Positions 21,935 to 57,757 of a stretch of DNA of 64,000 nucleotides are shown here, in pieces. The number at the start of each line of letters is the position of its first letter. The stretch's first letter is position 1. Location of the stretch: contig OZ245006.1 in NCBI GenBank assembly GCA_965223545.1, forward strand, positions 4,480,001 to 4,544,000, read 5' to 3'. The notes under the pieces are model-generated. The model saw nothing but the letters and a program-made list of their open reading frames with translations. It ran no database searches and was not told the DNA's origin. The position numbers were made by a program, and so were the translations under genes. The stretch comes from Planctomycetota bacterium (GTDB taxonomy: Bacteria; Planctomycetota; UBA1135; UBA2386).

Positions 21935-24900
21935 TCACACCTCGGAGGGTTGGTGCTCGATCGCGATCTGCTTGATCGCGCGCAGGTCGAGCTTGCCGGT
22001 GCCGAGGATCGGCAGCGCCTCGACCTGCACGAAGTCGTCGGCCTTGGGCACGAACAAGTTGGGCAGACCGGCGGCGCCGAGGTCTTGCAGCACGGTCGGG
22101 ATCTCCCGCGCCGCCAATGTGTGCAGCACGACGAGTTTCTCGCCCTTGCGCGCGTCGGGCACGCCGGTCACCGCGAAGGTCGGCTCGGTGCGTCCGGCGG
22201 CCTCGTGCAGGGCGGTCTCGACCGTGCCGTGCGGCACCATCTCGCCGCCGATCTTCGAGAACCGCGACAGCCGATCGCCGATGTGCACGTAGCCGTCGTC
22301 GTCGACGTGGGCGAGGTCGCCGGTCACGTACCAGCCCTCGCGCAGCACTTGTGCAGTGAGGTCGGGCCGGCCGAGGTAGCCGCGCATGACGTTGGGGCCG
22401 CGCACCAACAGGAGGCCGGTCTCGCCCGGAGGCAGCGCTGCGTGGCTGTCCGGATCGACGACGCGCACGGTGATGCCGGGCAGGGGTTGGCCCACGGACC
22501 CCGGCCGCTGGCCCGCTTGAAAGACGCCGGGGGCGCGGTAGTCCGGTGCGCCGACCGCGATCACCGGCGAGCACTCGGTCGCGCCGTAGCCCTCGAGCGG
22601 GCGGATGCCGAAGCGCTGCTCGAACGCGGTGGCCAAGCGGTCCGGCAGCTTTTCGGCGCCGGTGATCAGCAGCCGGATCGAGCCGAGCTGTCCGGGCTGG
22701 CAGCGGCGCAGATACAGCTGCAAGAACGTCGGCGTCGCCAGCATCGTCGTCACGCGGTAGCGCTCGATCAGCGCCCCGATCGCGGTCGCGTCGAGCGGGT
22801 TGGCGTGGAACACCAGCGCCATGCCGCGCCGCAGCGCGAACCACAAGCTCATCTTGCCGAAGGAGTGGAACAGCGGCAGGATGCCGAGCAGTCGGTCACC
22901 GCTGGAGACGGGCAGCGACTCGGCCGTGCCATCACCGTTGGCCACCAAGTTGAAGTGCGTCAGCTCGACGCCCTTGGGCTCGCCGGTGCTGCCGCTCGAG
23001 AACAGGACTGCGGCGACGTCGTCGACTTCGACCTTTCGCTCCGCGCCACAGGCGCGTTCGAGCCAGCGCACCGGGGCGAACATCGCCAGCAGCGCCGCGA
23101 AGAGCTTGTTGCCCTTGCCGATCGAGGCGGCGAGATCCTCCGCCATCAGCAGTCGGGCACCGCCTTGGAGCTCGATCTTGGCGAGCTCCAAGAAGCGCGC
23201 ACTGGTGACGATCGTGTCGAGCTCGGCTTGGCGGATGGCGGAGGCGATCGCGGCCGGGCCGGCGGTGTAGTTGAGGTTGACGGCCGTGCGGCCGGCGAGG
23301 GCGGCGGCGATGTTGGTGGCAGCGCCGGCCACGCTCGGTGGTAGCAAGATGCCGACCCGTTCGCTGTTGCCCCAGTCCGACCGCAGCCGTCGGGCGAGGG
23401 CGACCGCTGCCGTGAGCAGGCCGAAGCGCGACACGGAGGGGCGGGTGGCGTCGGCCGCGGCGAGCTTCCACGGCGCCCGGCGCGCACCGCGGACGAACGC
23501 GACGTGCAGCGGTGCGGCGTTGGCCGCGCGCTCCGCCCACGCGTCGGCGGACAAGTCGCGCACCGCCTCGCGCACCGCGCGGCGGTCGCTGTCCGCGCGC
23601 ATCGGCGCGCCGAAGCACACGGTCACCGGCCGCGGCAGGCGCGGAATGCCCCCGCCGCCGCGCTTGGCGGCGAAGCTGAAGACGCTGCCCCACACGCGGT
23701 CGAGGTACAGCGGCACGATCGGCACGTCGCGGCCCTTGACCAGCCGCTCCAGCCCGCGCTGGAACGGCAGCATGCGGCCGGTGCGACTGATCTCGCCCTC
23801 GGCAAAGATGCACACCAGCTCACCGTCGTCGAGGTGCTTGCCGGCGTCCCGCATGGACTGCAGCAAGGCCCGCGGGCTGTCGCCCGCCGCGATCGGCACC
23901 GCGCGCAGCAGCCGCATGAACGGGTGCAGCCAACGGTGGTAGTAGTAGTCCGAGTAGACCAAGAAGCGGATCGGCCGGTGCGTGCTCGCCATGAGCAGCA
24001 GACCGTCGACGAAGGACATGTGGTTGGCGACCAGGAGTCCGCCGCCTTCGGCGGGCACGTTCTCCGCGCCGCGGACCCGCACGCGGTAGAGGGTCGCGCT
24101 CAGCAGAGTGAGCGCGGTGCGCAGACAGGCCTCCGGCAACAGCCATAGCGCCCACGCCGTCGCGGCGGCGACCACCACGGCGGCGGCGGTGAAGATCCCG
24201 GCCGGAGTGAGGCCGAGCATGGTGAACAGCTGCGCTCCCAGCGAGCCGGCGAGGATGCCACCGAAGATCGCACCGTTGGCGACCGCGATCACCGCGCCGC
24301 GCACGCCGGCGGGGGAGAAGAGCTGCAGGGCGGTGTTGAGTGGCACGACGATCAGGCCGCTGCACACGCCGAGCGCGCCCAGCCACGCCGCGGTACCCCA
24401 CGCGCCGGGAGCATACAGACCGAGCACCGCCGAGGCGGCGGCGAGGCCGATGCTGCCCAGCGGGATCCAGCCGAGGTCGAGGCCGCTGCGCGACAGCCGC
24501 CCGACGAGGGCGCTGCCGATGCCGATGCCGACGCCGGAGGCCACCAACAGCTGGCCGGCATGCGACTCGGAGAGGCCGAGGGTCGCGCGGCCGTAGACCA
24601 GGGCGTTTTGGCTGACCAAGCTGGCGATGCCCCAGAAGAGCACCGATCCCGCCACCGTCAGCCGCAGCGTGCGGTCGCGCCAGATCGTGGCAAAGCCATC
24701 GCGACACGCGGTGACCAAGGAGGCGTCGGGGCGCGCTGGCGCGACCCGCGGCACGAACTGGATGGCGACCAGGCCGACCAGCGCCAGCCCGGTCAGCACC
24801 GCGCCGGCGACCCAGGGCTGCGCGCCCGACTGCTCGAGCAGCATGCCACCCGCGGCGGTGCCGAGGATGATCGCCAAGAACGTCCACAGCTCGAGGACGC

Positions 24901-25354
24901 CGTTGCCGGCGGTCAGCCGTTTTGCCGGCAGGATCTCCGGCAGGATGCTGTACTTGGCGGGGCTGAACAGCGCGCTCTGCGCACCCATCGCCGCCAGCAC
25001 GATCAGCCCGAGCACCCCGCCCTCCGGCTGCAGCCAGAGGGCCGCGGTGCCGGCCGCCATCAGCAGCACCTCGGCGCCCTTGGTCGCGACCAGCACGCTG
25101 CGCTTGCTGAACCGGTCGGCGATCCAAGCCGCGGGCAGCGAGAACAGCATCAGCGGCAGGGTGAACACGACGAACGCCAACGTGGTCTGCGCCTGGGAGG
25201 CAATTTCGAGCTGGAGCGTTCCCTCGCCCAGCTGGCCGGCCAGCGTGCGGATCGCCAGCAACGCCATCAGCAGCTTGATGGCGTTGTCGTTGAACGCGCC
25301 GAAGAACTGAGCGATCAGCAGCCCCGCCAGATTGGCCTTGCCTGGATTGTTCAT
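21935..25354 (-). CDS. aas: MFS lysophospholipid transporter / acyltransferase / acyl-ACP synthetase fusion
   Basis: AQFFGAFNDN (LplT-like MFS); NHMSFVD and FAEGEISRTG (PlsC); FSSGSTGEPKG, EGYGATE and WYVTGD (AMP-binding). Confidence 0.92.
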   Translation of the reverse strand: MNNPGKANLAGLLIAQFFGAFNDNAIKLLMALLAIRTLAGQLGEGTLQLEIASQAQTTLAFVVFTLPLMLFSLPAAWIADRFSKRSVLVATKGAEVLLMAAGTAALWLQPEGGVLGLIVLAAMGAQSALFSPAKYSILPEILPAKRLTAGNGVLELWTFLAIILGTAAGGMLLEQSGAQPWVAGAVLTGLALVGLVAIQFVPRVAPARPDASLVTACRDGFATIWRDRTLRLTVAGSVLFWGIASLVSQNALVYGRATLGLSESHAGQLLVASGVGIGIGSALVGRLSRSGLDLGWIPLGSIGLAAASAVLGLYAPGAWGTAAWLGALGVCSGLIVVPLNTALQLFSPAGVRGAVIAVANGAIFGGILAGSLGAQLFTMLGLTPAGIFTAAAVVVAAATAWALWLLPEACLRTALTLLSATLYRVRVRGAENVPAEGGGLLVANHMSFVDGLLLMASTHRPIRFLVYSDYYYHRWLHPFMRLLRAVPIAAGDSPRALLQSMRDAGKHLDDGELVCIFAEGEISRTGRMLPFQRGLERLVKGRDVPIVPLYLDRVWGSVFSFAAKRGGGGIPRLPRPVTVCFGAPMRADSDRRAVREAVRDLSADAWAERAANAAPLHVAFVRGARRAPWKLAAADATRPSVSRFGLLTAAVALARRLRSDWGNSERVGILLPPSVAGAATNIAAALAGRTAVNLNYTAGPAAIASAIRQAELDTIVTSARFLELAKIELQGGARLLMAEDLAASIGKGNKLFAALLAMFAPVRWLERACGAERKVEVDDVAAVLFSSGSTGEPKGVELTHFNLVANGDGTAESLPVSSGDRLLGILPLFHSFGKMSLWFALRRGMALVFHANPLDATAIGALIERYRVTTMLATPTFLQLYLRRCQPGQLGSIRLLITGAEKLPDRLATAFEQRFGIRPLEGYGATECSPVIAVGAPDYRAPGVFQAGQRPGSVGQPLPGITVRVVDPDSHAALPPGETGLLLVRGPNVMRGYLGRPDLTAQVLREGWYVTGDLAHVDDDGYVHIGDRLSRFSKIGGEMVPHGTVETALHEAAGRTEPTFAVTGVPDARKGEKLVVLHTLAAREIPTVLQDLGAAGLPNLFVPKADDFVQVEALPILGTGKLDLRAIKQIAIEHQPSEV

Positions 25355-25566
25355 CGTGGATCGATCGGAGTGGCTCCCCCGGAGTGGCTTCCCCGGGATG
25401 TCAGCAGTATCGACGCCGGAAGAGCACCGCCCCGACTCATTCCGCCGTGCCATTCGCTAAGCACGGCTAATCGAAGAGCCATCCGTCGACTATACTGCGG
25501 CACGAGTGCCTACAGGCTGGCAAAGCGCCTTGCCACCCTGGTTTCCGGCTCCCTTTGCCCCGCCAC

Positions 25567-26445
25567 ATGATTCAGCTCCATCGTCTCGAAGGCTTCTTCT
25601 GGGTCGCGAAGACCGGCGGCTACGCGCGCGCGGCCCGCGCGTTTCCGTACCCGATCACGCAGCCGGCGGTGCACCAGCAGGTGCGCAAGCTCGAGGACGA
25701 GCTGGGTCTCGAGCTGTTCGAGCGCGTCGCCAAGGACCGCGTGCGGCCGACGCCGGCCGGCCGCGCGCTGATGCAGTTCGTGCAGCCGTTCTTCGAGGGG
25801 CTGCCCGCCGCGCTGCGTGCCGTGCGCGCCGGCGCCGGCGCCGGCGAGCTCGTGGTCTACTGCGAGCCGCTGCTGTTGCGGTTGTTGCTGCCGCGCTGGA
25901 TCAAGCGGATGCAGCGGCGCGCGCCCGACACCTGCATCGACCTGCACGAGCTGCGGGAGATCGACGTTTCGCTGTTGCGCCGCGGCGACGCCGATCTCTT
26001 GGTGTGCTATTTGCCCGAGGTTCCCGACGACATCGCCACGCAGGTGGTGGCCACGCTGCGGCCGTTCTTGGTGGTCTCGGCGGATCACCCGCGCGCCGCC
26101 AACAAGCGGCTGCGGCCGAAGGACCTCGCCGGCGAGCCGTTCGTCGCCTACAACCGAGGCACGGTCGAGCACGACCTGCAGATGGGGGCGCTGGCGGAGT
26201 TCGGCGTGCGGCCCGAGCGGCTCCTGTTCGCCAGCAGCGCCGACGCGATTCTCGGCTTCGTCGCCAGCGGGCTCGGCTACTCGCTGGTGCCGCACCTCTC
26301 GGCGGAAGAGCTGCAGTCGTCCGGGGTGTCGGCGCGCCCGCTGTCCCGGCCCAAGATCGAGTTTCCGATCAGTGCCGCGTGGCGCCGCGACGCGCCGGAG
26401 AACGCGGCGCTCGACTTGGCGCTGGAGACCGCTCCCGGCCGGTAG
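25567..26445 (+). CDS. LysR-family transcriptional regulator
   Basis: N-terminal HTH GGYARAARAF...TQPAVHQQVRKLEDELGLELFER; C-terminal substrate-binding domain. Confidence 0.92.
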   Translation: MIQLHRLEGFFWVAKTGGYARAARAFPYPITQPAVHQQVRKLEDELGLELFERVAKDRVRPTPAGRALMQFVQPFFEGLPAALRAVRAGAGAGELVVYCEPLLLRLLLPRWIKRMQRRAPDTCIDLHELREIDVSLLRRGDADLLVCYLPEVPDDIATQVVATLRPFLVVSADHPRAANKRLRPKDLAGEPFVAYNRGTVEHDLQMGALAEFGVRPERLLFASSADAILGFVASGLGYSLVPHLSAEELQSSGVSARPLSRPKIEFPISAAWRRDAPENAALDLALETAPGR

Positions 26446-26535
26446 ACCCGATTCCGGGGTTTTTCGTGACGCCCTGACACGACCGCGGGTGGAACGCCTG
26501 AAACGGACGCAACCGTCCCCGACCAGGAGTGACCC

Positions 26536-27033
26536 GTGCCAGCCAGCCAACAACCGCATGCCATCGCCGACGGCCCGCCGTGGGCCGCCCCTGCCGAGTT
26601 CGTCGTGCGCAACAGCGGCGACGGACGCGAGCAAGGGGTCTTCGCCGCGCGGTCCTTCTCCCGTTCCAGTCTGGTGGCGAGGATCTCCGGCGTCGTCGTG
26701 CATGCCCGCGGGCTCCACACGCTGCAGATGGGCGAAGGGCTGCACATGTACGACATGGACTTCGCCGGTCTGCTGCTGCACTCGTGCGCACCGAACGTCC
26801 ACGTCGACATGCAGCGCCTCGAGGTCTGGGCCCTGCGGGACATCCGGCCGGGAGAGGCACTGTGCATGGACTACACGACGACCGAGGACGTGCTGCATCG
26901 GCAGTTCCCGTGTCTGTGCGGCGCGCCGGCCTGCCGCCGGTGGATCACCGGCTATAGGGAGCCGATCAATGGCGAGGGTCTGCGCTACCTGCAAGGTGGC
27001 AACCGGGACGGCGCGCTGCGCGATGTGGTGTGA
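26536..27033 (+). CDS. SET-domain methyltransferase, BurB-like (putative methionine S-methyltransferase)
   Basis: GVFA; LLHSCAPN; ALRDIRPGEALCMDY; post-SET CLCGAPACR; AGGAG RBS at 26525 before GTG. Confidence 0.85.
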   Translation: MPASQQPHAIADGPPWAAPAEFVVRNSGDGREQGVFAARSFSRSSLVARISGVVVHARGLHTLQMGEGLHMYDMDFAGLLLHSCAPNVHVDMQRLEVWALRDIRPGEALCMDYTTTEDVLHRQFPCLCGAPACRRWITGYREPINGEGLRYLQGGNRDGALRDVV

Positions 27034-27044
27034 CGGGGATCGCC

Positions 27045-28280
27045 ATGCTGAGCACTCGAACCGAACGCACCGTCGACCGCGCCTGGTGGGCGCGCAGCGA
27101 CCTCCATCACGACTCCGGCGAGCTCTCGTTCGCGGGTCGACGCGTCGCGGACTTGGCGCGATCGGTGGGCACGCCCGCGTTCTTCTACAGCACCCAACGC
27201 GTCGAAGAGAACCTGAGGCGGTTGCACCGCGCGCTGGGTTCGGTGCACCGCCGCTGCCGCGTCTTCTACGCGATCAAGGCCAACCGCTACGCGCCGCTCT
27301 TGACGTGGATGAAGTCGACGGGGCTGTGTGGCGTGGACGTTTGCTCGCCGGGTGAGCTCCGGCACGCTCTGGCGGTCGGGTTTCGGCAAGACGAGATCTC
27401 CTACACTGCTTCCGGAATCGGCAGGGACGAGGTCGGGCTCCTCGGCGCCAACCCCGACGTGCTGGTCAATTGCGACGGGCTGGGCGCGCTGCGCCATCTC
27501 GGCGAGGCCTCCCCGGGGCGCGCGGTCGGCATTCGCATCAACCCGGCGCGCGGCACCGGCTACGGCACCAACCAAAAGCTCCGCTACAGCGGTCGGGCGA
27601 CCACCAAGTTCGGCATCTACCGAGACCAGTTCGACCAGGCGCTGCGCTGTGCCGAGCAGAGTGGCCTGGTGGTGCGGCGCATCCACCTGCATCTGGGTTG
27701 CGGCTACTTGGACGATCAGCTCGACGAGTGGGAGGCCGGCCTCGAGGCATGCCGGTGGTTCGTCGACCGGGTCCCGGGGCTGGAGGCGATCAACCTCGGC
27801 GGCGGGCTGGGAGTGCCGCACCGCGCCGGCGATCGGCCCCTGGACCTCGACCGCTGGGCCGGCGTCGTGCAGCGGTTCGTCGGTGGCCGCGACGTCGAGA
27901 TCCACGTCGAGCCCGGGGACTACGTCGTGAAGGACGCCGGCTTGCTCGGTGTTTCCGTCACCGCCGTGGAGCGCAAGCAGGAGACGGTGTTCGTCACCGT
28001 CGACGCCGGCTTCAACGTCGCCATCGAGCCCGCGTTCTACGGCCTGCCGTGCGAGCCCGTTGCCTGCTCGGCCGGCCCTGTGGCCGACCGCGTCACGATC
28101 GTCGGTCCGATCAACGAGGCGCTCGACGTCTGGGCCGCGGACGTGCCGATGCCTGGCGTCGCCGAGGGCGACGTCATCGCGCTGCTCAACTCTGGCGGCT
28201 ACGCCGCCTCGATGAGCTCCAACCACTGCCTGCGCGCGCGTGCTTGCCAATACCTGCTGTTCGCCGAGGCTCCGAGATGA
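27045..28280 (+). CDS. PLP-dependent decarboxylase, fold type III (LysA-like; putative S-methylmethionine decarboxylase)
   Basis: YAIKAN (PLP Lys); TKFG; HLHLG; INLGGG; VEPG; GGYAASMSSN. Alternative GTG start at 27030 overlaps the SET stop. Confidence 0.88.
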   Translation: MLSTRTERTVDRAWWARSDLHHDSGELSFAGRRVADLARSVGTPAFFYSTQRVEENLRRLHRALGSVHRRCRVFYAIKANRYAPLLTWMKSTGLCGVDVCSPGELRHALAVGFRQDEISYTASGIGRDEVGLLGANPDVLVNCDGLGALRHLGEASPGRAVGIRINPARGTGYGTNQKLRYSGRATTKFGIYRDQFDQALRCAEQSGLVVRRIHLHLGCGYLDDQLDEWEAGLEACRWFVDRVPGLEAINLGGGLGVPHRAGDRPLDLDRWAGVVQRFVGGRDVEIHVEPGDYVVKDAGLLGVSVTAVERKQETVFVTVDAGFNVAIEPAFYGLPCEPVACSAGPVADRVTIVGPINEALDVWAADVPMPGVAEGDVIALLNSGGYAASMSSNHCLRARACQYLLFAEAPR

Positions 28281-29689
28281 CAGTGCTAGAACGCGACCCA
28301 CCGGGCGTGGCACGCCGGTGCGCGGACCACGAGATCGTCCGCCGCGACCTCTCCCACGTGCTCCACCCGTGGACCGACTTCTCCAGCCGGGACGACGCGC
28401 CGCTGGTCATCGTCAAGGGCGAGGGCTGTACGGTGGAGGACGCCAATGGCAACCGCTACCTCGACGCCATTGGCGGGATGTGGTGCGTCACCCTGGGCCA
28501 CGGGCGATCCGAGCTGGCCGACGCGATGGCGCAGCAGGCGAGGCAGCTCGCCTACTACACGCCGTTCGGAGCCATGGCCAACGCGCCGGCTGCCGAGCTC
28601 GCGGCCGAGCTGGCCGCCCTGGCTCCCGGCGACCTCAACCGCGTGCACTTCACCACCGGCGGTTCCACCGCGGTCGACTCGGCGATTCGGTTGGCGCACT
28701 ACTACTGGGCGAGCATCGGCCAACCCGCGCGGAAGCACATCATTTCGCGGTTGGACGCGTACCACGGCAGCACCTATCTGACGGCCTCGGTCAGCGGCAA
28801 GCAGTGCGACCGCACGCTCTTCCACTACGAGAGCGAGTTCGTGCACCACGTCAGCTCGCCGAATGCGTACTACCGGCGAGAGCATGCTTCGCCGGCAGAG
28901 CTGTGCGACGCGTTGGTCGCCGAGCTGGAGCAGAAGATCTTGGAGCTGGGTCCGGAGCGGGTGGCGTGCTTCATCGCCGAGCCCATCCTGGCGTCGGGCG
29001 GCGTGATCGTTCCACCGGTCGGCTACCAGCAACGCACGCAGGAGATCTGCCGCCGCTACGGCGTGCTCTACATCAGCGACGAGGTGGTGACCGGCTTCGG
29101 GCGGTTGGGGCACTTCTTCGCTTCCGAGCCCCGCTTCGGGGTCGTGCCGGACATGATCATCACCGCGAAGGGCCTGACGTCGGGCGCGATTCCGCTCGGC
29201 GCCTGCATCGTCTCCGACCGTATCCACGACACGATCGCGGCTGTCGACGATGGCATCTTCACCAACGGGTTCACCTACTCGGGCCACCCCGTGGCCTGCG
29301 CCGTGGCGCGCGCCAACATCGCGGTGATGCAGCGCGAGCGCATCTGCGAGCACGTGCGCGACGTCGGGCCTTACTTCATCCAGCGGCTCGAGGAGCTCCG
29401 GCGCTACGACATCGTCGGCGACGTGCGCGGCGATCATCTCATGGCGTGCATCGTCTGCGATGTCGACGGCCATCCGGACGCGGCCACCGCACGGGACATC
29501 GCGGTCGCCGGCCTGGTCGACGCCCATTGCCAGAAGCGAGGGCTCCTGGTGAGGCCCTACGAGAACTTGTGCATCCTGTCGCCCCCGCTCACCATCGATC
29601 GCGCGACCATCGATGCGATGGTGGATCTCCTGCACGCGTCGATCGCCGCGGCCGAGCGCGACCTCGGTGGCACGGCCCGGCCGAAATGA
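28277..29689 (+). CDS. Class III (omega) aminotransferase
   Basis: YLDAIGGMWCVTLGHGR; AYHGST; SDEVVTGFGRLG; TAKGLTSG; GFTYSGHP. ATGA overlap with the upstream gene. Confidence 0.93.
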   Translation: MTVLERDPPGVARRCADHEIVRRDLSHVLHPWTDFSSRDDAPLVIVKGEGCTVEDANGNRYLDAIGGMWCVTLGHGRSELADAMAQQARQLAYYTPFGAMANAPAAELAAELAALAPGDLNRVHFTTGGSTAVDSAIRLAHYYWASIGQPARKHIISRLDAYHGSTYLTASVSGKQCDRTLFHYESEFVHHVSSPNAYYRREHASPAELCDALVAELEQKILELGPERVACFIAEPILASGGVIVPPVGYQQRTQEICRRYGVLYISDEVVTGFGRLGHFFASEPRFGVVPDMIITAKGLTSGAIPLGACIVSDRIHDTIAAVDDGIFTNGFTYSGHPVACAVARANIAVMQRERICEHVRDVGPYFIQRLEELRRYDIVGDVRGDHLMACIVCDVDGHPDAATARDIAVAGLVDAHCQKRGLLVRPYENLCILSPPLTIDRATIDAMVDLLHASIAAAERDLGGTARPK

Positions 29690-29696
29690 CTCCGCC

Positions 29697-30089
29697 ATGA
29701 ACAGCAACGAACGCGTCGTCCGAGACTTCATCGCCGCGTGGTCGCGCTTGGACCACGACGAGCTCGCCGCCTACTTCACCGAAGATGGCGTCTACCACAA
29801 CATGCCGCTGGCCCCCGCGATCGGCCGCGACGCGGTCCGCGACCTGATCGAGAGCTTCACGTCGGGCTGGACCGGCACGACGTGGGAGGTGGTCAACGTC
29901 GCGGTTGCGGGCGACCTGGTCATCGCCGAACGGATCGACCACACCCGCGCGGTCGGCAGGTCGGTGGACTTGCCCTGCGTCGGCGTCTTCGAGTTGCAGG
30001 CGGGCAAGATCCGCTGCTGGCGCGACTACTTCGATCTCGACTCGTACCTGCGTGCGATGGAGCCGGCGAGCGACGCCCGCGTGCAGTGA
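29697..30089 (+). CDS. Limonene-1,2-epoxide hydrolase-like / SnoaL (NTF2-fold) protein
   Basis: YFTEDGVYHNMP; VIAERID; LPCVGVFEL..GKI..WRDYFD. Confidence 0.88.
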   Translation: MNSNERVVRDFIAAWSRLDHDELAAYFTEDGVYHNMPLAPAIGRDAVRDLIESFTSGWTGTTWEVVNVAVAGDLVIAERIDHTRAVGRSVDLPCVGVFELQAGKIRCWRDYFDLDSYLRAMEPASDARVQ

Positions 30090-30192
30090 GGCGCAGTGAG
30101 GGGAGCACTTTTTTGGCTTCCCGCGTGACGCCGGCCACGGTGCTGCGGGTGTGGGGGCACCACTTCTTTTTTCAAACCGAACGAGCCGAACG

Positions 30193-30600
30193 ATGTTGTT
30201 CCCCATCCTGACGATTGCCGGTGGCCTGGTGGCCGCTTCCTCGCTGATCATCGCCCGCAAGCCGAACGCGCAACAGCTGTTCGACAAGGTCGCCCCGTAT
30301 CAGGGATTCCTCGGTGTCGGCCTGTTTGCCGTCGGTGTGTTGTGGGCGATTCGCGTGGTGCCGCACATCGGCGCGATCGCGTCGGCGCCGCTGACTCTTG
30401 GCCTCACCCTCGCCGCCATCGCGCTCGACCTCGGCCTGGGCTTTCTGCTCGGCTACGGCCTGCTCAACAAGTGGCTGCTCTCGAAGAACGAGGCGGCCAA
30501 GGCCAGAGGAGCGGAGATCCTCGCCAAGCTGGCCGTGGTGCAGGTGCCGTTGGGCTGCGCGGCCATGGCGTCGGGGATCGCGGTGCTGGTCGGGTTCTGA
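30193..30600 (+). CDS. Small integral membrane protein
   Basis: Four hydrophobic segments; PYQGFLGV and LGFLLGYGLL motifs. Confidence 0.75.
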   Translation: MLFPILTIAGGLVAASSLIIARKPNAQQLFDKVAPYQGFLGVGLFAVGVLWAIRVVPHIGAIASAPLTLGLTLAAIALDLGLGFLLGYGLLNKWLLSKNEAAKARGAEILAKLAVVQVPLGCAAMASGIAVLVGF

Positions 30601-30625
30601 CGCGCGTCCCGACTCAGCCCTCCGG

Positions 30626-31516
30626 TCAAGCGGCCGCGGGCGCGGGATCGTAGAACTCGAGCAAGCGCTGCACCCGAGTCTGCGTCGCCGGATGCGTGCG
30701 CAGCCACTCCGGCACCGGCTCGACCTCCGCGTCGGGCAGCCGTTGGCGCCACCGCGTCCAGCGGCGCAGCTGATCGTGAAAGCGCTCGAGCTTGGTCAGT
30801 GCCGAGGCGAGCCCCAGCGGGTCGCTGGTCAGCTGCACCGCGCCGAGGTCGGCGCCGAACTCGCGCATGCGCGAGGCGGCGAAGCGCAGCGCCATCACCG
30901 CCATCGGCGCCGCCGCCAGCAGCGCGAGCGTCAGCCAGCGGACTCCGTCGGCGTCGATCAACAGCGGCAGGCCCAACAGCAGACTGAGGCCGCCGAGCCA
31001 GAACAACGAGTGGGTCAGCTTGGCCGCGGCGTCGAACACCGCCAGCAGCTTCAGGTCGCCATGGGCCAGGTGGCTGACTTCGTGCGCCAACACTCCGATC
31101 AGCTCGCGGTCGTCGAGGTAGCGCAGCAAGCCCTGGGTCACCGCGACGACCGGCTGCTCGGGCGTGCCCATGGCCATGGCGTTGAGATCGCCGCGCGGCA
31201 GCACGAAGACGTGCGGCGGCCGGGGCAGCTCGGCGCGGCGGGCCAGCGTGGTGACGGCGCGCGCCAGGCCGGAGCCGGGGGCGACCGGCTGTGCCCGCAT
31301 CCAGCGCAGCACCAGGCCCAACGGTGCGTGCTGCTTGCTGCCGAGGTAGAGCGCGCTGCCGACGGCGAGGACGATCAGGCCGAAGATGCCCGCGACCAGC
31401 CAGCCCAACAACGCCAACAAGCCGACGACCGCGGCGATCAAGAGCACGGTGCGCAGCGCGTTGCGCCGGCGGTGGCGGCGCAGCACCGCGGGGTCGAACC
31501 GGGGAAGTGAGCGCAC
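30626..31516 (-). CDS. M48 family zinc metalloprotease (HtpX-like)
   Basis: NAMAMG; VAVTQGLL; LAHEVSH; SRMREFGADLGA; THPATQTRV. Start approximate. Confidence 0.9.
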   Translation of the reverse strand: MRSLPRFDPAVLRRHRRRNALRTVLLIAAVVGLLALLGWLVAGIFGLIVLAVGSALYLGSKQHAPLGLVLRWMRAQPVAPGSGLARAVTTLARRAELPRPPHVFVLPRGDLNAMAMGTPEQPVVAVTQGLLRYLDDRELIGVLAHEVSHLAHGDLKLLAVFDAAAKLTHSLFWLGGLSLLLGLPLLIDADGVRWLTLALLAAAPMAVMALRFAASRMREFGADLGAVQLTSDPLGLASALTKLERFHDQLRRWTRWRQRLPDAEVEPVPEWLRTHPATQTRVQRLLEFYDPAPAAA

Positions 31517-50262: not shown

Positions 50263-52177
50263 GTGCGCCGGGAGACCGGCGGAGTGTAGCGAATGAAAGA
50301 GTCGTACGATGAAGGTTGGCGAGCCACGTCGACCCCGAGTCATGCGCCGTCACCCGCGAGGGTGGAGGTGAAGCGTTGACAGGGGCACACGCAGGCCAGG
50401 CTATTGAGCCGCGAAAACTGCTACTTCGGGATGCCGACGCAGTCAACGGATGCGGAAGGCAACACCAGCGCCAGCGAGATCGCCTGCTGGCGCAGGATCC
50501 CGCGCGGGCTGAGAACCAGGGCATGCGTGGAAGCACTCCGCACGGGAACCGGGAGATCTCAGACTTGCCCCGAGGGGAGGGCCCTCGGGGACGCATCGGG
50601 AAGTCTCAGGACGCAATCCGGTGACGCACGAGCCTGAGAAGTCGGACAGCTTCGTAGTACCGGAGAAGCAGCCGAACAAAGCTGGGCAACCGGCGGCGGA
50701 GGCCGTGGAGGAAAGGAAGCTGGCCAAGGGAAACTCGCGAGAGCAAAACGCGCCCCGGACTCAGCGCCGGATCAGCGCGCACAGCGCGCTCGAGCGGGTA
50801 CGTGAAGCAGCAAGGAGGAACAGGAAACAGCAGTTCACTGCGCTCCTACACCACGTCTACGACGTCGATCGTCTTCGGGTTGCGTATCACGCCATCCGGC
50901 GCGATGCAGCCCCCGGCGTCGACGGCGTGACATGGGCGGCCTACGGGGAGCACCTGGAGGATCGTCTCCAGGGCCTCGCGGCTCGCCTTCGGCGCGGAGC
51001 GTATCGAGCGAAGCCGGTGCAGAGGGCCTACGTGCCAAAGGTGGACGGGCGACAGCGTCCCATCGGTCTACCGACGCTGGAGGACAAGATCGTCCAGCGC
51101 GCGGTGGTCGAGGTCCTGAACGCCATCTACGAGACCGACTTCCTCGACTTCAGCTACGGCTTCCGTCCGAAGCGCAGCCCGCACATGGCGCTGGACGCAC
51201 TGACGACGGGAATCATGACACGGAAGGTGAACTGGGTGCTCGATGCCGACATCCGTGGCTTCTTCGATGCCCTCGACCACGGCTGGCTGGTGAAGTTTCT
51301 CGAGCACCACATCGGTGACCGGCGAGTGATTCGACTCATCCAAGAGTGGCTGCACGCCGGAGTCCTGGAGGGCGGGCGCCGAGTGCGTAGCGACAAGGGC
51401 ACGGTCCAGGGCGGGAGTATCAGTCCGCTGTTGGCCAACGTGTTCCTGCACTACGTGTTCGACCTGTGGATCCAACAGTGGCGCCAGACGCGGGCGCGCG
51501 GCGACGTCGTCGTCGTGCGCTTCGCCGATGACTTCGCTGTGGGCTTCGAGCACCGCGAGGAAGCGGAGGCGTTCCACAAGGAGCTGGCGGAGCGCTTCGC
51601 CAGCTTCGGTCTGGAACTGCATCCCGAGAAGACCCGGTTGCTCCGGTTCGGGCGCCACGCGCGCAAGGACGAGAGCGACGACGGTCGCACCGGGCCCCCC
51701 GCGACCTTCAAGTTCCTGGGATTCACGCACATCTGCGGGAAGACCAGGGCCGGCCGATTCACGGTCTACCGCCGAACGGCCACCAAGACACTCCAGCTGA
51801 AGTTGCGGGGGATCCGTGAGGCGCTCCGGCGCCGGAGGCATCTCCCCATCCCCGAGCAAGGGCGCTACCTGCGCTCCGTCGTGCTCGGGCATGTCCGCTA
51901 CTTCGGCGTGCCGATGAACAGCGGGGCGATCACTCGCTTCCGCCACATCGTCATACAGCTGTGGAAACGCAGCCTGGAGCGTCGCAGCCAACGGGGTCGC
52001 ATCCTCTGGGATCGCATGACGCGGCTCGCCGCAGCATGGCTCCCTCCGGCCCGAGTCTGTCATCCCTACCCTCTCGTGCGGCTTGGCGTCATCACCCGAG
52101 GCAGGAGCCCAGTGCGGTAGTCCCGCACGCTGGGATCTGAACGGGGGGCGTCGGGCAACCGGCGTCCCTACCGTGAC
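50263..52177 (+). mobile_element. Group II intron (IIB-like branch spacing), apparently full length
   Basis: 5' GTGCG at 50263; domain V GAGCCCAGTGCG...CGCACGCTGGGATC (52105-52137); domain VI hairpin with bulged A 8 nt from the 3' AC end at 52177; EBS loops match the 5' exon. Confidence 0.92.
50621..52120 (+). CDS. ltrA: Group II intron reverse transcriptase/maturase, no HNH endonuclease
   Basis: AAPGVDG; RPIGLPTLEDKIVQ; SYGFRPKRSPH; VLDADIRGFFD; GTVQGGSISPLLAN; RFADD; LHPEKT; FKFLGF. Confidence 0.95.
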   Translation: MTHEPEKSDSFVVPEKQPNKAGQPAAEAVEERKLAKGNSREQNAPRTQRRISAHSALERVREAARRNRKQQFTALLHHVYDVDRLRVAYHAIRRDAAPGVDGVTWAAYGEHLEDRLQGLAARLRRGAYRAKPVQRAYVPKVDGRQRPIGLPTLEDKIVQRAVVEVLNAIYETDFLDFSYGFRPKRSPHMALDALTTGIMTRKVNWVLDADIRGFFDALDHGWLVKFLEHHIGDRRVIRLIQEWLHAGVLEGGRRVRSDKGTVQGGSISPLLANVFLHYVFDLWIQQWRQTRARGDVVVVRFADDFAVGFEHREEAEAFHKELAERFASFGLELHPEKTRLLRFGRHARKDESDDGRTGPPATFKFLGFTHICGKTRAGRFTVYRRTATKTLQLKLRGIREALRRRRHLPIPEQGRYLRSVVLGHVRYFGVPMNSGAITRFRHIVIQLWKRSLERRSQRGRILWDRMTRLAAAWLPPARVCHPYPLVRLGVITRGRSPVR

Positions 52178-53558
52178 AACAAAGGGTGATCCGAGCGCGC
52201 GGGAAGAACCGGATGTCCATCGGCCTCGAGTCGCCGATCCGCCGAATCCGCCCGACGATTTGAACGACCCAGGAGTCGATTCGAGTTCGGATAGAAGCGC
52301 GGGTCTCGAGACAGGCCAGTAGAAGGCCGCGGAGCCCGCTCTGGATTGCCCTCGGTGTCCCGATCCCGAACAAGCTCCGCATGATCGTCCCGAGGTTGCG
52401 TGCTGCGGCGTGAATCACGTACCGCTTTTTGATGTCGTCGATCCCTCGCAGCCACGTTCGTCGCGCTGCTCCTGACTCGCAGGTGTGAGCAAAGCTGCGT
52501 TCGACCCGCTCGCTCCGGTGTCGTTGGAGCGTCCTTGATCGTGGGCCTGCGACTCGTCGTCGGTTGGCTCGATACGCCTTCTGCCACGACGCGGGCTTGT
52601 CGATCCACTTGCGCTTCCGTTGTAGTCGCGGCTGCGGGATGTAGGTGCGTATGCCGCGCTCGCCCAGCCAGGCGAGTGTCTCGGTCTTGTGGTAGCCCTT
52701 GTCGGCGACGACCTCTTCGTACGAATTGTTGTGCTCGGCGCCAACGAGCATGGCCTCGGCTTCCACAATCGCGTCCTTCAGCGCCTCGCTGTCAGCGGTG
52801 TCGGCATGATGGATCGTCGCGGCGACGAGGATCTCGGACTCGGTGTCGAGCGCGTGCTGCGCTTTGTACGCGAGGTGCGTCCGTCCGTCCTTCATCTTCG
52901 TGATCCGGCTGTCGGGGTCGGTCGGCGACTCCCAATCTTTGTTCGAGACCTTCTTCCCGCGGCGTTTGCGATCGAATCGCCGTAGGTCCTCCTCCGTGGG
53001 GTCTTCGATGCCCTCTCCCTTTGCGAGCTCACGCACGTAGTCGCTCCAGCCCTTGCCGGTGTCCTTGCGGACGATCGACTTCATCGCGGCGTTGGCTTCC
53101 AGCGTGGTCGTGTCCACGGCCAGCGCCTTGCCCCTCACCATGCCCTTGGACTTCGCGATCTTGACGACCAAGGCGAACACCTCTTCGTGAACCTCCACCG
53201 GCAACCGCTTGCGGATCACGGTCAGACTGGAGTGATCAGGTGTGCGCTCAGTCGGTAGCAACCCAAGGAAGTCCTGCAGCGAGCGGCTGTCGCTGCAGCG
53301 CCAGGCAATCCCGCGCTGCGACCCAACTCCCTCGAAGTACCCGACCAGAAGCATCCGGAAGTAGACGCCTGGCGGAATCGACGGGCGGCCGCCTTCCTTG
53401 TAATACGGCTCGCACAGCGACTCGACGTGGTGGTCGAACTCCGCCCCGGCGAGAAGCTCGTTGAGCTTCGAGTAAAACGGATGGCCCGGGGACCGAGGAA
53501 GGCTCGTAGTCGGGACCAAGAGCTCTTGCTGCTTTGCGCGTCGCTTGCCGAGTGCCAT
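52092..53558 (-). CDS. IS1182-family transposase (C-terminus altered by the intron)
   Basis: GRPSIPP..YFRMLL; PDHSSL; AVDTT; TDPDSR; ADKGY; VERSFAH. The native end would be RITLCSTDC-TAG at the CTAG. Confidence 0.9.
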   Translation of the reverse strand: MALGKRRAKQQELLVPTTSLPRSPGHPFYSKLNELLAGAEFDHHVESLCEPYYKEGGRPSIPPGVYFRMLLVGYFEGVGSQRGIAWRCSDSRSLQDFLGLLPTERTPDHSSLTVIRKRLPVEVHEEVFALVVKIAKSKGMVRGKALAVDTTTLEANAAMKSIVRKDTGKGWSDYVRELAKGEGIEDPTEEDLRRFDRKRRGKKVSNKDWESPTDPDSRITKMKDGRTHLAYKAQHALDTESEILVAATIHHADTADSEALKDAIVEAEAMLVGAEHNNSYEEVVADKGYHKTETLAWLGERGIRTYIPQPRLQRKRKWIDKPASWQKAYRANRRRVAGPRSRTLQRHRSERVERSFAHTCESGAARRTWLRGIDDIKKRYVIHAAARNLGTIMRSLFGIGTPRAIQSGLRGLLLACLETRASIRTRIDSWVVQIVGRIRRIGDSRPMDIRFFPRARITLCCHGRDAGCPTPPVQIPACGTTALGSCLG

Positions 53559-53763
53559 GGGGATCCGTCTCCAGTGATCGAGACATGATCCCTACGTACG
53601 TCGAGCACATCACGACAGGTCGATCTCGATGTTCTTCAACGGCCTGCTAGACACCCAAGTCGCCCTGAACCAAGGGGCCTGACTTGACGCGCAGGGCTGT
53701 CCCGGCTCTGCTGCTGGCTCACCTGACCCTGTGGCTGATCAACCAGGGCAGTGCCCCCTATTC

Positions 53764-54177
53764 ATGGCAACCAAGAAAGGCAAGCAGGCCTACGACTTCG
53801 TCGTTGCGGCTCTGAAGAGAAACAACAAGGTAGAGTTCGCTACTGTTCGCGATGCGGCAGCGAGAAAGGGCATCACCCTCTACCCCATCGTCTACGGCCG
53901 AGCGAAGGCGGCGCTTGGGCTTGTGCCATCCAGGAAACGAGGCGAGGCCAAGGCGGCTCGTGAAAAGGCCGCAGCGAGCAGCCACCGGGGGCCGGGTCGT
54001 CCGAGGAAGACTCAGGCGAGACGTGGTCCGGGACGGCCGCCGAAGAGTCGTTCAACGGGCACGCCGCTCGATGCCGTCCGAGAACTCGCCCAAACCATGC
54101 AGGAGACGGGCCGAGAGAACACACAGCTTCGAGCTACCCTCGAGAAGATTCGGGACCTCATCGACCGAGCGCTCTGA
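53764..54177 (+). CDS. Small basic protein with two AT-hook-like motifs and a C-terminal coiled coil
   Basis: RGPGRPRK and RRGPGRPPK; Lys/Arg-rich; heptad tail ENTQLRATLEKIRDLI. Confidence 0.8.
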   Translation: MATKKGKQAYDFVVAALKRNNKVEFATVRDAAARKGITLYPIVYGRAKAALGLVPSRKRGEAKAAREKAAASSHRGPGRPRKTQARRGPGRPPKSRSTGTPLDAVRELAQTMQETGRENTQLRATLEKIRDLIDRAL

Positions 54178-54862
54178 GGGTCACGCTTATCTCTCGCAGA
54201 GCTGCATTAGACCTCCGGGCAGCACTGCTCCAACAAGGCGTTCACCGCAGGCTAGTCGTGAGCACATCGGTCACGATGCGACTTCGCCTCTCGCGCTCGG
54301 GTAGGAGGTCGAAGGCGGAACGTCGGCGGCAATGCGCCGAGCGCTCCGTCCGGTAGCAGCCAGGCGCGAAAGTCGCGAGGACGTTCACCGCACACAGCCA
54401 GCATTCCAAGTTGGCTAGCCCAGAGCTGACACTGAGTGCGCCCGTCAAACCGTTGGAGGTCCGCCGCCCCAGAGTCTCCGCAGCTTGTCCGGGTTTGTCT
54501 CGGCCGTTCCCTTGTCGGTGAAGTCGCTGACTTGTCCGGGTGACTCGAACGACCGCTGTGGCGCTCGGCTTACAGAGCGCCTGGCGGAACCGCCCGGTCG
54601 GGAAGCGCTGGGAGGAGAATCGCCTCGTGTGCAGCGGAAGATGTAGTCTGCTGCCTGGCGGAACAACGCCGCCGCTTTGAAGTAGGTCTCGCCTCGATCT
54701 CCGGCGTCCCTTGCTCTGTAGGCGCGGTTGCTGTTCTCACGGGCAACCGCCATCTGGTCAGGAGTCAACTTCTTCCATTCGAACTGCGCTTCCTTATACA
54801 AGCGCTCCGCATCGGTAAGCGTCCGGTGAAGGCATCTCGAAAGCCGCTGGCGGATCGGCAGG

Positions 54863-55207
54863 ATGCGGCGGATGACGAAGAGAATCCCCGTGTGGGCTCG
54901 GGCGGAGATGCGCGAGCTGCTTCAAGAGCTGGACAACTCAGGCGTGACGGTCGCCGAGTTCGCGCGCCGGCGTGGAGTCAACGCAAACCGCATCTACTGG
55001 GCAAGGCGGCAAGCCCGAGCTGCGGCGGCGCCCACGTCCGCGCCGGCGGTGTCGGACTTCGGGGAGCTGGTGGTCGCTGCGGCCCCATCGCCGCGACGAG
55101 CAGCGGCCATTGAGTTGCGGGTGCCGTCGGGCGCGGTTGTCGATGTGCAGCGCGACTTCGACGAGGCGACGCTCCGACGGCTGCTCGGAGTCTTGCTGCC
55201 ATGCTGA
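54863..55207 (+). CDS. tnpA: IS66 accessory protein TnpA (HTH)
   Basis: SGVTVAEFARRRGV...IYW; IELRVPSG...FDEATLRRLL. Confidence 0.85.
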   Translation: MRRMTKRIPVWARAEMRELLQELDNSGVTVAEFARRRGVNANRIYWARRQARAAAAPTSAPAVSDFGELVVAAAPSPRRAAAIELRVPSGAVVDVQRDFDEATLRRLLGVLLPC

Positions 55208-55581
55208 GCTTTCCGCCCTCGCCGCAAGTCAAGATCTTCGTTTGCCGGAAGCCGGTGGACATGAGGAAGAGCTTCAGTGGTCTGTCCGGTGCGGTCATCG
55301 ACGTGGTCGACCACGACCCGCAATCTGGTCACCTCTTCCTCTTCTTCAACAAGCGCCGGACCATGATGAAGGCACTGGTGTGGGAGCCGTCCGGTTACTG
55401 GGTGCTGGCGAAGCGACTGACGAGCGGCCGCTTTCAGGTCTTCGATCGCTCGGCTGAGAACAACAGCCGATTCGAGATTGCGAGTAGCGATCTCGCGCTC
55501 TTGTTGGACGGCATCGACCTCCGTGGCGCGCGACGCAGAGAAGTTCGCGATCAGGTGCTGCAACGACTGGCCGTGACTTGA
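55201..55581 (+). CDS. tnpB: IS66 accessory protein TnpB
   Basis: PVDMRKSFSGL; LFLFFNKRR; K.LVWE..GYW..KRL..GRF. Confidence 0.93.
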   Translation: MLSFPPSPQVKIFVCRKPVDMRKSFSGLSGAVIDVVDHDPQSGHLFLFFNKRRTMMKALVWEPSGYWVLAKRLTSGRFQVFDRSAENNSRFEIASSDLALLLDGIDLRGARRREVRDQVLQRLAVT

Positions 55582-55611
55582 TCCGTCTCCGGTTTGTGTT
55601 AATCAGAGGGA

Positions 55612-57165
55612 GTGACGCCGCTCACGGACCTCGACGAAGCCAACTCGACGATCGTCAAGCTGCGCGCCGAGATCGAGCGCCTTCGCGGGCAGCTCGAACT
55701 GATGAAGCAGCGCACGTTCGGACGGCGCCGCGAGCACATCAATCCGAACCAACTGCTGTTGTTCGAGGCCGGCGTCGCGCAGCTCGAAGAGCTGCAGAAG
55801 CAGGCGCAGGAAGCGGAGCAGTCGAGCGAACTCGCGAAGCCTGACCCGAAGAAGAAGCGGAAGCGCGGTCACGGTCGCGGTCAGTTCGCCGAGCACCTGG
55901 ATCGGCATGTCGTCGAGGTCGACGTGCCGGAAGCGGAGCGCTGCTGCCCCGAGTGCGGCGAGGCCATGCACTGCATCGGGACTGACGTCACCGAGCGTGG
56001 CCACATCATCCCAGCGCGGTTGGTCGTGAAGCGCTACGTGCGCAACAAGTACGCGTGCCCGCACGGGCACAGGATGAAGATGGCGTCGATGCCTGCCGGC
56101 GTCGTCGAGAAGGCGAAGTACGAGCCCTCCGTCTACGCGCATCTTGTCACAGCGAAGTACGGCGACCACCTGCCGCTGAACCGCCTGCAGGGGATCTTCC
56201 GCCGCTTCGGGGCGCACGTCCCGAAGCAGACCATGTGGGACATGCTGGCGCGCTTCGACGAGATCGCGGCGCGTCCGATCCTGGCCGAGATGCGGCGCCA
56301 GCTGCTTCAAGAAGATGTTCTTCAAGCCGACGAGACCCCGATCAGGGTGCGACTGGAAGGCCAGAAGGGCACCCGGCGCGGTGTGCTCTGGGCCTGGCGG
56401 AACGCTCGCGGCAGCCCCAACGAGATGGTCGTGGCCGACTTCAGGGACAATCGATCCGCGAAGGGGCCCAACGCTTTTCTCGGCGCGTGGTCCGGGACAT
56501 TGTTGACCGATGGCTACGACGGTGTGAACCCGAAAGCGCAGCAGAACGCGATCACGCGGGCTGGCTGCTGGGCGCACGCCCGTCGGAAGTTTCGGGATGC
56601 GCTCACTGCTGGTGCATCACGGGCTGGTTTGGCGCTGCGACCGATCCAGAGGCTTTTCTGGATCGAGCGCGCCGTACTGTCCCGAGCGAAGGATCGGAAC
56701 CTGACCCGTGAAGCCCTCATCGAACTGCGTGAGACCGTTCGTAGCCGCAGATCCAAAGCGGTGCTCCACAGCCTCTACGAGATCGTGTTCGGCCTCCAGG
56801 AGGATCCGGCGACCGCGGGCAACGAACTGCTTCGCAAGGCGGTGAGCTACGCCATCCGGCAGCGGGACCCGTTGCTCGCGCACCTCGACGACGGCCGGCT
56901 GCCGATCCACAACAACGACACCGAACGTGACCTGCGCCACGTCGTGACGGGCCGGAAGAACTGGATGACGCTCGCCAGCGAGAAGGGTGGCAACGTGGCA
57001 GCTCGCCTCTACTCGATCGTGCTCAGCTGCAAGCTGGCGAAGGTCAACGTCGAGCGCTACCTCGAGGACGTCTTGGTCGCTGTCGCCACCACGCCGTCGT
57101 CGCGCATCGCCGAACTCACGCCCTGGGGCTGGGCGAAGGCACGCGCTGCCGGCCAGTCCTGCTGA
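55612..57165 (+). CDS. tnpC: IS66 transposase TnpC
   Basis: FGRRRE; CCPECG zinc ribbon; KYGDHLPLNR; ADET; TDGY; GCWAHARRKF; NNDTER; ELTPW. Confidence 0.95.
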   Translation: MTPLTDLDEANSTIVKLRAEIERLRGQLELMKQRTFGRRREHINPNQLLLFEAGVAQLEELQKQAQEAEQSSELAKPDPKKKRKRGHGRGQFAEHLDRHVVEVDVPEAERCCPECGEAMHCIGTDVTERGHIIPARLVVKRYVRNKYACPHGHRMKMASMPAGVVEKAKYEPSVYAHLVTAKYGDHLPLNRLQGIFRRFGAHVPKQTMWDMLARFDEIAARPILAEMRRQLLQEDVLQADETPIRVRLEGQKGTRRGVLWAWRNARGSPNEMVVADFRDNRSAKGPNAFLGAWSGTLLTDGYDGVNPKAQQNAITRAGCWAHARRKFRDALTAGASRAGLALRPIQRLFWIERAVLSRAKDRNLTREALIELRETVRSRRSKAVLHSLYEIVFGLQEDPATAGNELLRKAVSYAIRQRDPLLAHLDDGRLPIHNNDTERDLRHVVTGRKNWMTLASEKGGNVAARLYSIVLSCKLAKVNVERYLEDVLVAVATTPSSRIAELTPWGWAKARAAGQSC

Positions 57166-57460
57166 GACGCGTCGGCGGTCGCTCTTCAACCGCTGGCCGC
57201 CATGGCGTCACCGGACGCTTACCCGCATCGAATAATTCTGCGGCACCAGGTGCCAACGAGTCGAAGTTTGGCATGCGACCATCGTAACAGAAGCGGCCGA
57301 GCGCTGGGCCTCGCCTAGCGCGCTCAGCGATGGGGGATGCTCTGGTGCTTTCGATCCCACACAACCTCCTTCTCGTTCTGGGTTTGCACGCGGTGACTTC
57401 GCTGCCGCAGCAGCGATACGCGAGAAGGGCTACGATGTGCGGGCAGGAAGTTCAAGAGCC

Positions 57461-57745
57461 ATGGCCGACTACCACAACACGCCGCAGCACGACTACGAAT
57501 CTGCGTGGAGAATCTGGTCGGAGATGACCGCAGAAGAGCAGGCGTCCGACGCCTGCATTAGCGATGCCGCGCTTGTCTGGTTCGAGGGAATGCCAGAAGG
57601 GAGGCGGATTCACCTTGTCACCAATGGTGTTCCAGACGGACCCCCAGATTTAGCATGGGAAGTGAATCTTCCAGAGAAGATTGTTGGATTCGTCACGCTC
57701 ATACTTGTTGAGCTGTCCGTCTTAGGTTGGCTGGTTTCGAGATGA
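57461..57745 (+). CDS. Hypothetical protein with C-terminal TM helix
   Basis: Acidic N-terminus and hydrophobic C-terminus; tandem with the next ORF; no recognisable family. Confidence 0.45.
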   Translation: MADYHNTPQHDYESAWRIWSEMTAEEQASDACISDAALVWFEGMPEGRRIHLVTNGVPDGPPDLAWEVNLPEKIVGFVTLILVELSVLGWLVSR

Positions 57746-57757
57746 GAGGCTGAGAGC

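Follow-up and report, generated by a model that had tools for sequence, protein, structure and literature searches.

The SET protein BurB belongs to the bur (malleicyprol) cluster of Burkholderia thailandensis. Its activity on methionine (Met) has been demonstrated (PMC12542666, PMC7496086) and, according to a 2026 review, it is reported exclusively in this species (PMC13360808). The same chemistry is proposed for the Group I mmtN clusters, of which both a type free of non-ribosomal peptide synthetase (NRPS) genes (Novosphingobium sp. BW1) and a type with an NRPS (Streptomyces mobaraensis) are known (PMC9135737); on the S. mobaraensis enzyme the papers disagree, as it is described as MmtN-like (PMC9135737) or as a distant BurB homologue (PMC7496086). 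A search of the literature by titles and abstracts, covering few subscription papers, revealed no BurB-type genes in Planctomycetota or Desulfobacterales and none free of an assembly line. Here, we describe a four-gene cassette in a 64,000-nt window (the whole stretch of DNA analysed) of the Planctomycetota genome G000, which is 91% complete; the window is part of an 8.07-Mb contig. The cassette resembles the front of the bur pathway and the NRPS-free mmtN clusters, but it is neither a bur cluster nor a complete four-enzyme operon for dimethylsulfoniopropionate (DMSP), and its first enzyme is a SET protein, not MmtN. It is a real, conserved unit, most likely one of sulfonium synthesis. With a probability of roughly 0.6, it would encode a methionine-methylation route from Met via S-methylmethionine (SMM), DMSP-amine and DMSP-aldehyde to DMSP that operates without an assembly line. 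The chemistry is known; new are the host phylum, the layout, the missing last enzyme and an unexplained fourth gene. The cassette and its downstream end comprise:

26536-27033, + strand: SET/post-SET methyltransferase, BurB-like, 165 aa, GTG start (Pfam SET)
27030-28280, + strand: BurI-family decarboxylase dependent on pyridoxal phosphate (PLP), LysA fold, 416 aa from GTG (Pfam Orn_Arg_deC_N and Orn_DAP_Arg_deC)
28277-29689, + strand: class-III aminotransferase, BurD-like, 470 aa (Pfam Aminotran_3)
29697-30089, + strand: limonene-1,2-epoxide hydrolase (LEH)/SnoaL-like protein, 130 aa (Pfam LEH, E 2e-20)
30148-30161, + strand: weak terminator-like hairpin past the fourth gene (consensus match only)

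The initial annotation had described tightly linked genes for a SET protein, a decarboxylase and an aminotransferase, with an ATGA overlap at the second junction and a possible GTGA overlap at the first, and indeed all three genes were found in these places on the + strand together with both overlaps. Its range, 25567-30089, also covers the fourth, conserved LEH-family gene, which begins 7 nt past the aminotransferase gene and had been missed. The GTGA junction, in which the stop of the SET gene overlaps the start of the decarboxylase gene, is kept in locus L001, the second copy of the cassette described below.

The closest match of the SET protein in the PDB was BurB (9L4T, E 4e-42), followed by histone methyltransferases (3e-8). 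An AlphaFold model of the protein (mean pLDDT 88.8) superimposed on the complex of BurB with SMM and S-adenosylmethionine (SAM; 9L4V), showing a 0.7-Å root-mean-square deviation (rmsd), a TM score of 0.80 and 52% identity over 134 columns, and the second-best protein in this comparison of predicted fold reached a TM score of 0.57. A histone-type lysine methyltransferase was rejected, BurB being far ahead in the ranking by sequence and by fold. Seven of the twelve BurB residues named in PMC12542666 are identical in the SET protein: R42, H72, T73, H93, Y124, V130 and R133 of BurB correspond to R31, H61, T62, H82, Y113, V119 and R122. In a FastTree phylogeny of 96 rows the protein lies within the BurB-like set, where L001, P0003 and P0045 join it in one supported clade. 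The BurB likeness noticed initially is thus borne out by the top match to 9L4T and the 0.7-Å fit of the model, and the protein is very probably an L-methionine S-methyltransferase, predicted to convert Met and SAM to SMM.

The partner enzymes were compared with the proteins of a bur-like cluster on a plasmid of Eleftheria terrae, which served as proxy in place of the B. thailandensis and S. mobaraensis proteins. This bur-like cluster (L018:11897-40411) is a full one, with its genes arranged as in bur; its SET protein matched BurB with E 2e-73 and its reductoisomerase matched 7PCC, which we take to be BurG, with E 4e-163; L024 and L147 are bur-like clusters, too. The decarboxylase is 54% identical to the BurI-position protein of the proxy, and the other decarboxylases of G000 are 26-29% identical to the window protein (the genome's own LysA-like protein 29%). 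It shares with LysA the fold-type III PLP fold and the YAxKAN lysine motif but has GPINEALD in place of the LysA motif GPxCExxD, with N362 at the cysteine position; the motifs GCGYL and NEALD are common to it and all 7 other family members aligned. A housekeeping LysA was rejected, since the score stayed below the lysA cut-off (TIGR01048; 218 of 298 bits), Asn replaces the motif Cys and a separate LysA-like gene is present at G000:C1:6991778. In a FastTree phylogeny of 37 rows the protein groups with SET- and MmtN-linked decarboxylases, apart from LysA, with a support of 99. Of four plasmid records with this decarboxylase family, two have it beside a SET gene and two beside an MmtN-like gene (L104, L105; match of MmtN to 7VVV, E 4e-105), and the MmtN-linked decarboxylases and aminotransferases are 48-54% and 54-64% identical to those of the window. 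In these records, the mmtN-like gene on the plasmid from Rhodovulum sp. P5 (L104:13303-14141) aligns in two frames and is thus interrupted in the record, and the L105 aminotransferase likewise aligns in two frames. Two unrelated SMM-making methyltransferases share this decarboxylase partner and, therefore, SMM would be the shared substrate; judged by gene neighbourhood, this is the strongest indirect evidence on the substrate. Besides, fusions of SET protein and decarboxylase occur (P0054, P0298 and P0299, among 120 listed of 835 clusters). In all likelihood, the protein acts as SMM decarboxylase, with DMSP-amine as predicted product.

The aminotransferase passed NF005447/PRK07036 with 701 bits (cut-off 618), as does the BurD-position protein, to which it is 65% identical; the PRK07036 family is wider than BurD. 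The other aminotransferases of G000 are at most 33% identical to the window protein. Among eight plasmid matches the best two (64%) both lie in BurI-family clusters and the other six are 47-49% identical. Hence, both partners resemble BurI and BurD, as had been claimed, with 54% and 65% identity to the proxy and a tree support of 99 for the decarboxylase, and there is a good chance that the aminotransferase is a DMSP-amine transaminase with DMSP-aldehyde as predicted product. A different substrate was also considered: the SET protein would N- or S-methylate another amino acid, and the partners would yield a methylated polyamine- or betaine-like compound. BurB binds Met mostly via main-chain atoms (PMC12542666), so that sequence is a poor guide to specificity. 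Furthermore, 49 of 80 metagenome loci, many of them short, have no BurI-family gene beside the SET gene, and the SET family may have several roles; these loci are the best 80 of 201 stretches confirmed, out of 225, in a metagenome scan with one conserved pattern, their gene content was determined by tblastn, and the short loci make counts of lone SET genes and of pairs upper bounds. However, all three cassette genes fall with partners linked to bur or mmtN and, with the LysA motif missing from the decarboxylase and a separate gene for a LysA-like protein present in the genome, another substrate is improbable.

In the proposed route, the SET enzyme would S-methylate free L-methionine with SAM to SMM, the PLP decarboxylase would convert SMM to DMSP-amine and the aminotransferase would yield DMSP-aldehyde. 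No BurE-clade dehydrogenase gene is present at the cassette locus. The BurE-position proteins pass NF010000 and form a clade with a support of 97/99; the dehydrogenases compared from G000 and from G009, the second genome with the cassette, fall outside this clade with the same support, a result that covers these two genomes and leaves out G437, another genome with a BurB-like match. The last step would therefore fall to an unlinked aldehyde dehydrogenase of broad range that oxidises DMSP-aldehyde to free DMSP, the best candidate in G000 being G000:C1:3407957-3409360, and we regard DMSP formation in this way as probable. Knockout of burD or of burE in B. thailandensis lowers the product level without abolishing it (PMC7496086), and aldehyde dehydrogenases from plants oxidise DMSP-aldehyde readily (PMC11464771). 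DMSP-aldehyde that escapes oxidation would decay to dimethyl sulfide (DMS); the reported half-life of the aldehyde is about 1 h (PMC11464771). Of the earlier claim of a DMSP operon with an osmolyte role the first three enzymes hold; since neither genome has a BurE-clade dehydrogenase, we infer rather than observe DMSP as end product and free DMSP as osmolyte or stress protectant.

The protein encoded by the fourth gene matched LEH in the PDB (Rhodococcus erythropolis type; 1NWW, 4XBT) with E 2e-22, and Y33, N35, R79, D81, W108 and D110 are identical in the alignment; residues of the type Y33, N35, R79, D81 and D110 presumably form the catalytic, water-activating set of LEH. To our knowledge, the LEH family has no link to sulfonium metabolism, and we know of no LEH that acts on sulfonium aldehydes or on enals. 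Acrolein is the co-product when DMSP-aldehyde loses DMS. The gene occupies the position held by burE in burB-I-D-E operons, its protein was matched in 2 of 61 related genomes, both times at the cassette, and it has the lowest ratio of nonsynonymous to synonymous divergence (dN/dS) of the four genes (0.13). These findings, together with the retained residue set, the absence of a BurE-clade enzyme from G000 and G009 and the short half-life (about 1 h) with which DMSP-aldehyde decays to DMS (PMC11464771), led us to consider that the cassette ends at DMSP-aldehyde by design and that, without a lyase, DMS would be set free along with acrolein or 3-hydroxypropanal as the C3 aldehyde, either spontaneously or aided by the LEH protein. 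This is unlikely: the evidence comes from two genomes and probably one acquisition, no LEH gene was found at the 80 best metagenome BurB-like loci, and a literature search pairing DMSP-aldehyde with acrolein gave nothing. Moreover, the LEH family is large and conserved: it counts 571 clusters, and outside the two planctomycetes the best of those listed are 60-69% identical, so that conservation needs no sulfonium link. Similarly unlikely is the narrower proposal that the LEH-fold enzyme itself would turn DMSP-aldehyde into DMS plus a reactive C3 aldehyde without DMSP or a DMSP lyase; if true, a climate-active gas would have a new biochemical route of formation, and the LEH fold would have a new reaction. 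Given the size and conservation of the family, a passenger role is the plain reading, and the gene most likely travelled along as a passenger or serves as an accessory. The missing dehydrogenase makes the cassette a clean test of DMS emission straight from a synthesis pathway.

Polyketide synthase (PKS) or NRPS families had been reported as absent from the window, and none was found among the 36 + 5 open reading frames (ORFs) scanned, a rough gene sketch of the window; the only AMP-binding domain among them lies in an Aas-like protein. Compared with the bur cluster, which encodes a SET protein of about 50% identity and near-identical predicted fold, the cassette has no burA, C, F, G or H neighbours and shows a compact B-I-D order with an LEH-family fourth gene in a planctomycete, and G000 has neither a BurA-type adenylation (A) domain nor a BurE-clade enzyme. 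The A domain of BurA is without the FDx aspartate (PMC7496086); this residue is lacking in three BurA-type domains and retained in each of the 12 A domains of NRPS type in G000. In G009, 27 A-domain matches were found with at most 36% identity to the BurA type (judged by identity only); over both genomes the best identity was 35-36%, compared with 45-60% for true BurA-like domains. A BurA-type partner acting in trans was thus not found in G000 or G009; the best BurC and BurG matches in G000 (30-35%) lie elsewhere in the genome. Therefore, the description as a stand-alone operon can be extended from the window to the genome. A search for MmtN in G000 gave no match. Nevertheless, a secondary metabolite encoded elsewhere in the genome might use the sulfonium amine, aldehyde or acid as building block, as happens in the bur system, since G000 encodes several NRPS-PKS hybrids and at least 12 A domains of NRPS type and G009 has its 27 matches. 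In bleomycin A2 a free condensation (C) domain attaches DMSP-amine as the terminal amine (PMC10664482), so loading need not use a BurA-type domain; the origin of this amine has been called enigmatic (PMC10664482). This explanation is not a likely one either, because a BurA-type A domain is missing and no biosynthetic gene adjoins the cassette in G000 or at L001 in G009. The NRPS-PKS hybrid genes of G000 are scattered over C1 (e.g. 1096168-1105434, 3046551-3075271 and 3467683-3477462), and those at 3.05 and 3.07 Mb are nearly alike.

Next to these functional predictions, the conservation of the cassette was determined. Screening species genomes with the SET protein gave 109 candidate stretches, of which 2 were confirmed. 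At L001, genes for SET protein, decarboxylase, aminotransferase and LEH lie in identical order with 65, 70, 76 and 80% identity, among unrelated neighbours and without LysR. L001 belongs to G009 (90% complete), of a different genus in the window's own family, in keeping with the planctomycete host assumed initially. By a simple counting method, dN/dS between the two copies was 0.25 for SET, 0.25 for decarboxylase, 0.17 for aminotransferase and 0.13 for LEH, with synonymous divergence (dS) near 1 throughout. Therefore, the four genes were moved and kept together, and the same genes in the same order in another neighbourhood at such low ratios are no chance assembly. With a BurB-like profile of 39 rows, matches were found in 2 of 339 genomes of the class (G000, G009) and in 2 of 401 genomes of the phylum (G000, G437); G437 has SET and decarboxylase genes only. 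Horizontal acquisition of the four-gene cassette is the best explanation. The missing burE and the patchy spread (2 of 339 class genomes) could also point to the relic of a larger bur or DMSP cluster whose pathway no longer works, but four intact frames in two genera, dN/dS of 0.13-0.25 at dS near 1 and the conserved GTGA junction make a relic very improbable.

Several observations weigh against the route to DMSP proposed for the cassette. The SET protein is only about 50% identical to BurB and differs in 5 of the 12 named residues (A44, R70, S88, M132, H138). R70 and M132 contact Met via the main chain and BurB S88A, the same change as in the SET protein, retains >60% activity (PMC12542666). 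The phylogenetic comparison proposed in the initial annotation placed the protein within the BurB-like set, but in a clade of its own, with no resolved grouping beside the BurB proxy. The likeness of the partners to BurI and BurD rests, by sequence comparison, on the proxy cluster. In the search for BurE (PRK13473), no match in G000 or G009 passed the NF010000 cut-off, and the dehydrogenase candidate of G000 is just 41-47% identical to the BurE-position proteins and without a close counterpart in G009 (48%), although all these missing-gene results come from assemblies that are 91 and 90% complete. A gene for Met or SAM supply is not located beside the window cassette. A BCCT transporter (PF02028) was not found in G000 or G009, nor was a cupin DMSP lyase (PF16867), for which no control genome passed the cut-off. 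All catalytic steps of the cassette proteins are predictions and, since a planctomycete DsyG-like protein of ~39% identity was inactive (PMC11306096), homology can mislead in the DMSP field. Further markers were searched for in the same two genomes: no AcuI-type protein (TIGR02823) exceeded the cut-off, ectoine synthase gave no match in any genome, controls included, so that this search carries no information, and NqrB is present in both, which is too weak to name a habitat.

The interest of the cassette lies mainly in what it indicates, a wider spread of BurB-type operons. Besides the 49 loci with a SET gene only, the 80 metagenome loci comprise 23 with SET and BurI-family decarboxylase genes, five burB/I/D/E-like loci with an aminotransferase and a BurE-like gene and without a BurA domain, one with an aminotransferase and no BurE-like gene, and two with a BurA-type domain; at three of the SET-only loci a more distant decarboxylase is present. 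Complete burB-I-D-E-like operons without PKS or NRPS genes in the stretch are found at L040:6178-12455, L042:3602-10176, L043:5238-11530 and L028:1-5066. L040, L042 and L043 have non-PKS genes on both sides, a SAM synthetase gene lies upstream in L026, L028, L040 and L047 (plus an S-adenosylhomocysteine hydrolase gene in L026), and a homocysteine-synthesis gene lies upstream in L042 and L043. These four operons, whose decarboxylases share 76-81% identity with Desulfobacterales proteins, are better candidates for synthesis of free DMSP than the window cassette. The decarboxylases of L028, L033, L040, L042, L043, L047 and L048 are 76-84% identical to proteins of Desulfatibacillum aliphaticivorans and Desulfobacterales HSG17, and the similarity of this one gene suggests that the loci may come from sulfate reducers. 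Another phylum was sampled with 401 genomes centred on G716, and 8 of these had a BurB-like match; of the seven besides the centre, one is bur-like, one has the pair and five have no BurI-family partner nearby. Named relatives of the SET protein include Teredinibacter turnerae, Pseudomonas and Azospirillaceae. All this suggests that the BurB-type route is in use well outside Burkholderia. Should the proteins function as predicted, a SET-type route exists free of a toxin assembly line in Planctomycetota, complete four-gene operons exist in Desulfobacterales-like organisms and methyltransferase-decarboxylase pairs in many others, and surveys counting dsyB and mmtN alone overlook producers of DMSP and DMSP-amine.

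SET-decarboxylase pairs without an aminotransferase occur in L002, L020, L025, L029, L106 and others, and fusions in P0054, L050 and L094; judging by their gene content, the pathway would stop at DMSP-amine. On a Sphingomonas paeninsulae plasmid (L020:1-9601), SET and decarboxylase genes come after a partner-switching stress module made up of genes for ATP-binding, STAS and PP2C phosphatase proteins. At L038:885-4074, genes for a SET protein, a RimK-like ATP-grasp ligase that could join DMSP-amine to an acid, a BurI-family decarboxylase and an adenylylsulfate (APS) kinase are consecutive. On a Rhizobium bangladeshense plasmid (L019:6955-8867), a BurB-like gene is followed by a SAM decarboxylase gene among phage-like genes. 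In the Pseudomonas-like loci L044:6560-9064 and L080:6556-9151, a lone BurB-like gene converges on a carbonic anhydrase gene and is preceded by a gene whose 389-408 aa product matches no Pfam family.

The initial annotation had tied a LysR regulator to the operon. This claim had to be given up; the upstream neighbours of the cassette are:

21935-25453, divergent from LysR: Aas-like MFS/acyltransferase/AMP-binding gene (conserved pair 21935-26445)
25567-26445, + strand: LysR regulator (Pfam LysR), flanking the cassette and not a member of it

LysR was matched in 53 of 91 genomes of the family but not in G009, the other carrier of the cassette, and at 13 of 13 loci read in relatives it faces the divergent Aas-like gene with no SET gene behind it. 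LysR was therefore rejected as regulator of the cassette; it is native to the site, and the cassette is inserted behind it. The site behind LysR holds different genes in each relative's locus.

The stretch 25283-31500 is matched with 0 differences by one 14,588-bp short-read contig of run X1, so the cassette is not an assembly artefact; run X1 may be the source sample of the window. Run X5, from another study, contains short identical pieces inside and beside the cassette. Among the runs listed, none with this sequence was of RNA. In run X4 (~66% read, filtered records) the flanks and LEH lie in deep contigs and the first three genes are thinly covered, from which nothing was concluded. The GC content of the cassette (0.67-0.70) is near that of the genome (0.70). 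The SET gene has AGGAG at 26525-26529 ahead of its GTG start, the decarboxylase could alternatively begin at an in-frame ATG (27045), and no sigma-70-like promoter was found. Three terminator-like hairpins were found, compared with 1.9 expected in shuffles. Past the cassette, the next gene (30193-30600) matches no Pfam family, and L001 does not have it. Farther downstream, the window contains a reverse transcriptase gene and a heap of insertion sequence elements (DDE, IS66, integrase core) at 50621-63456.

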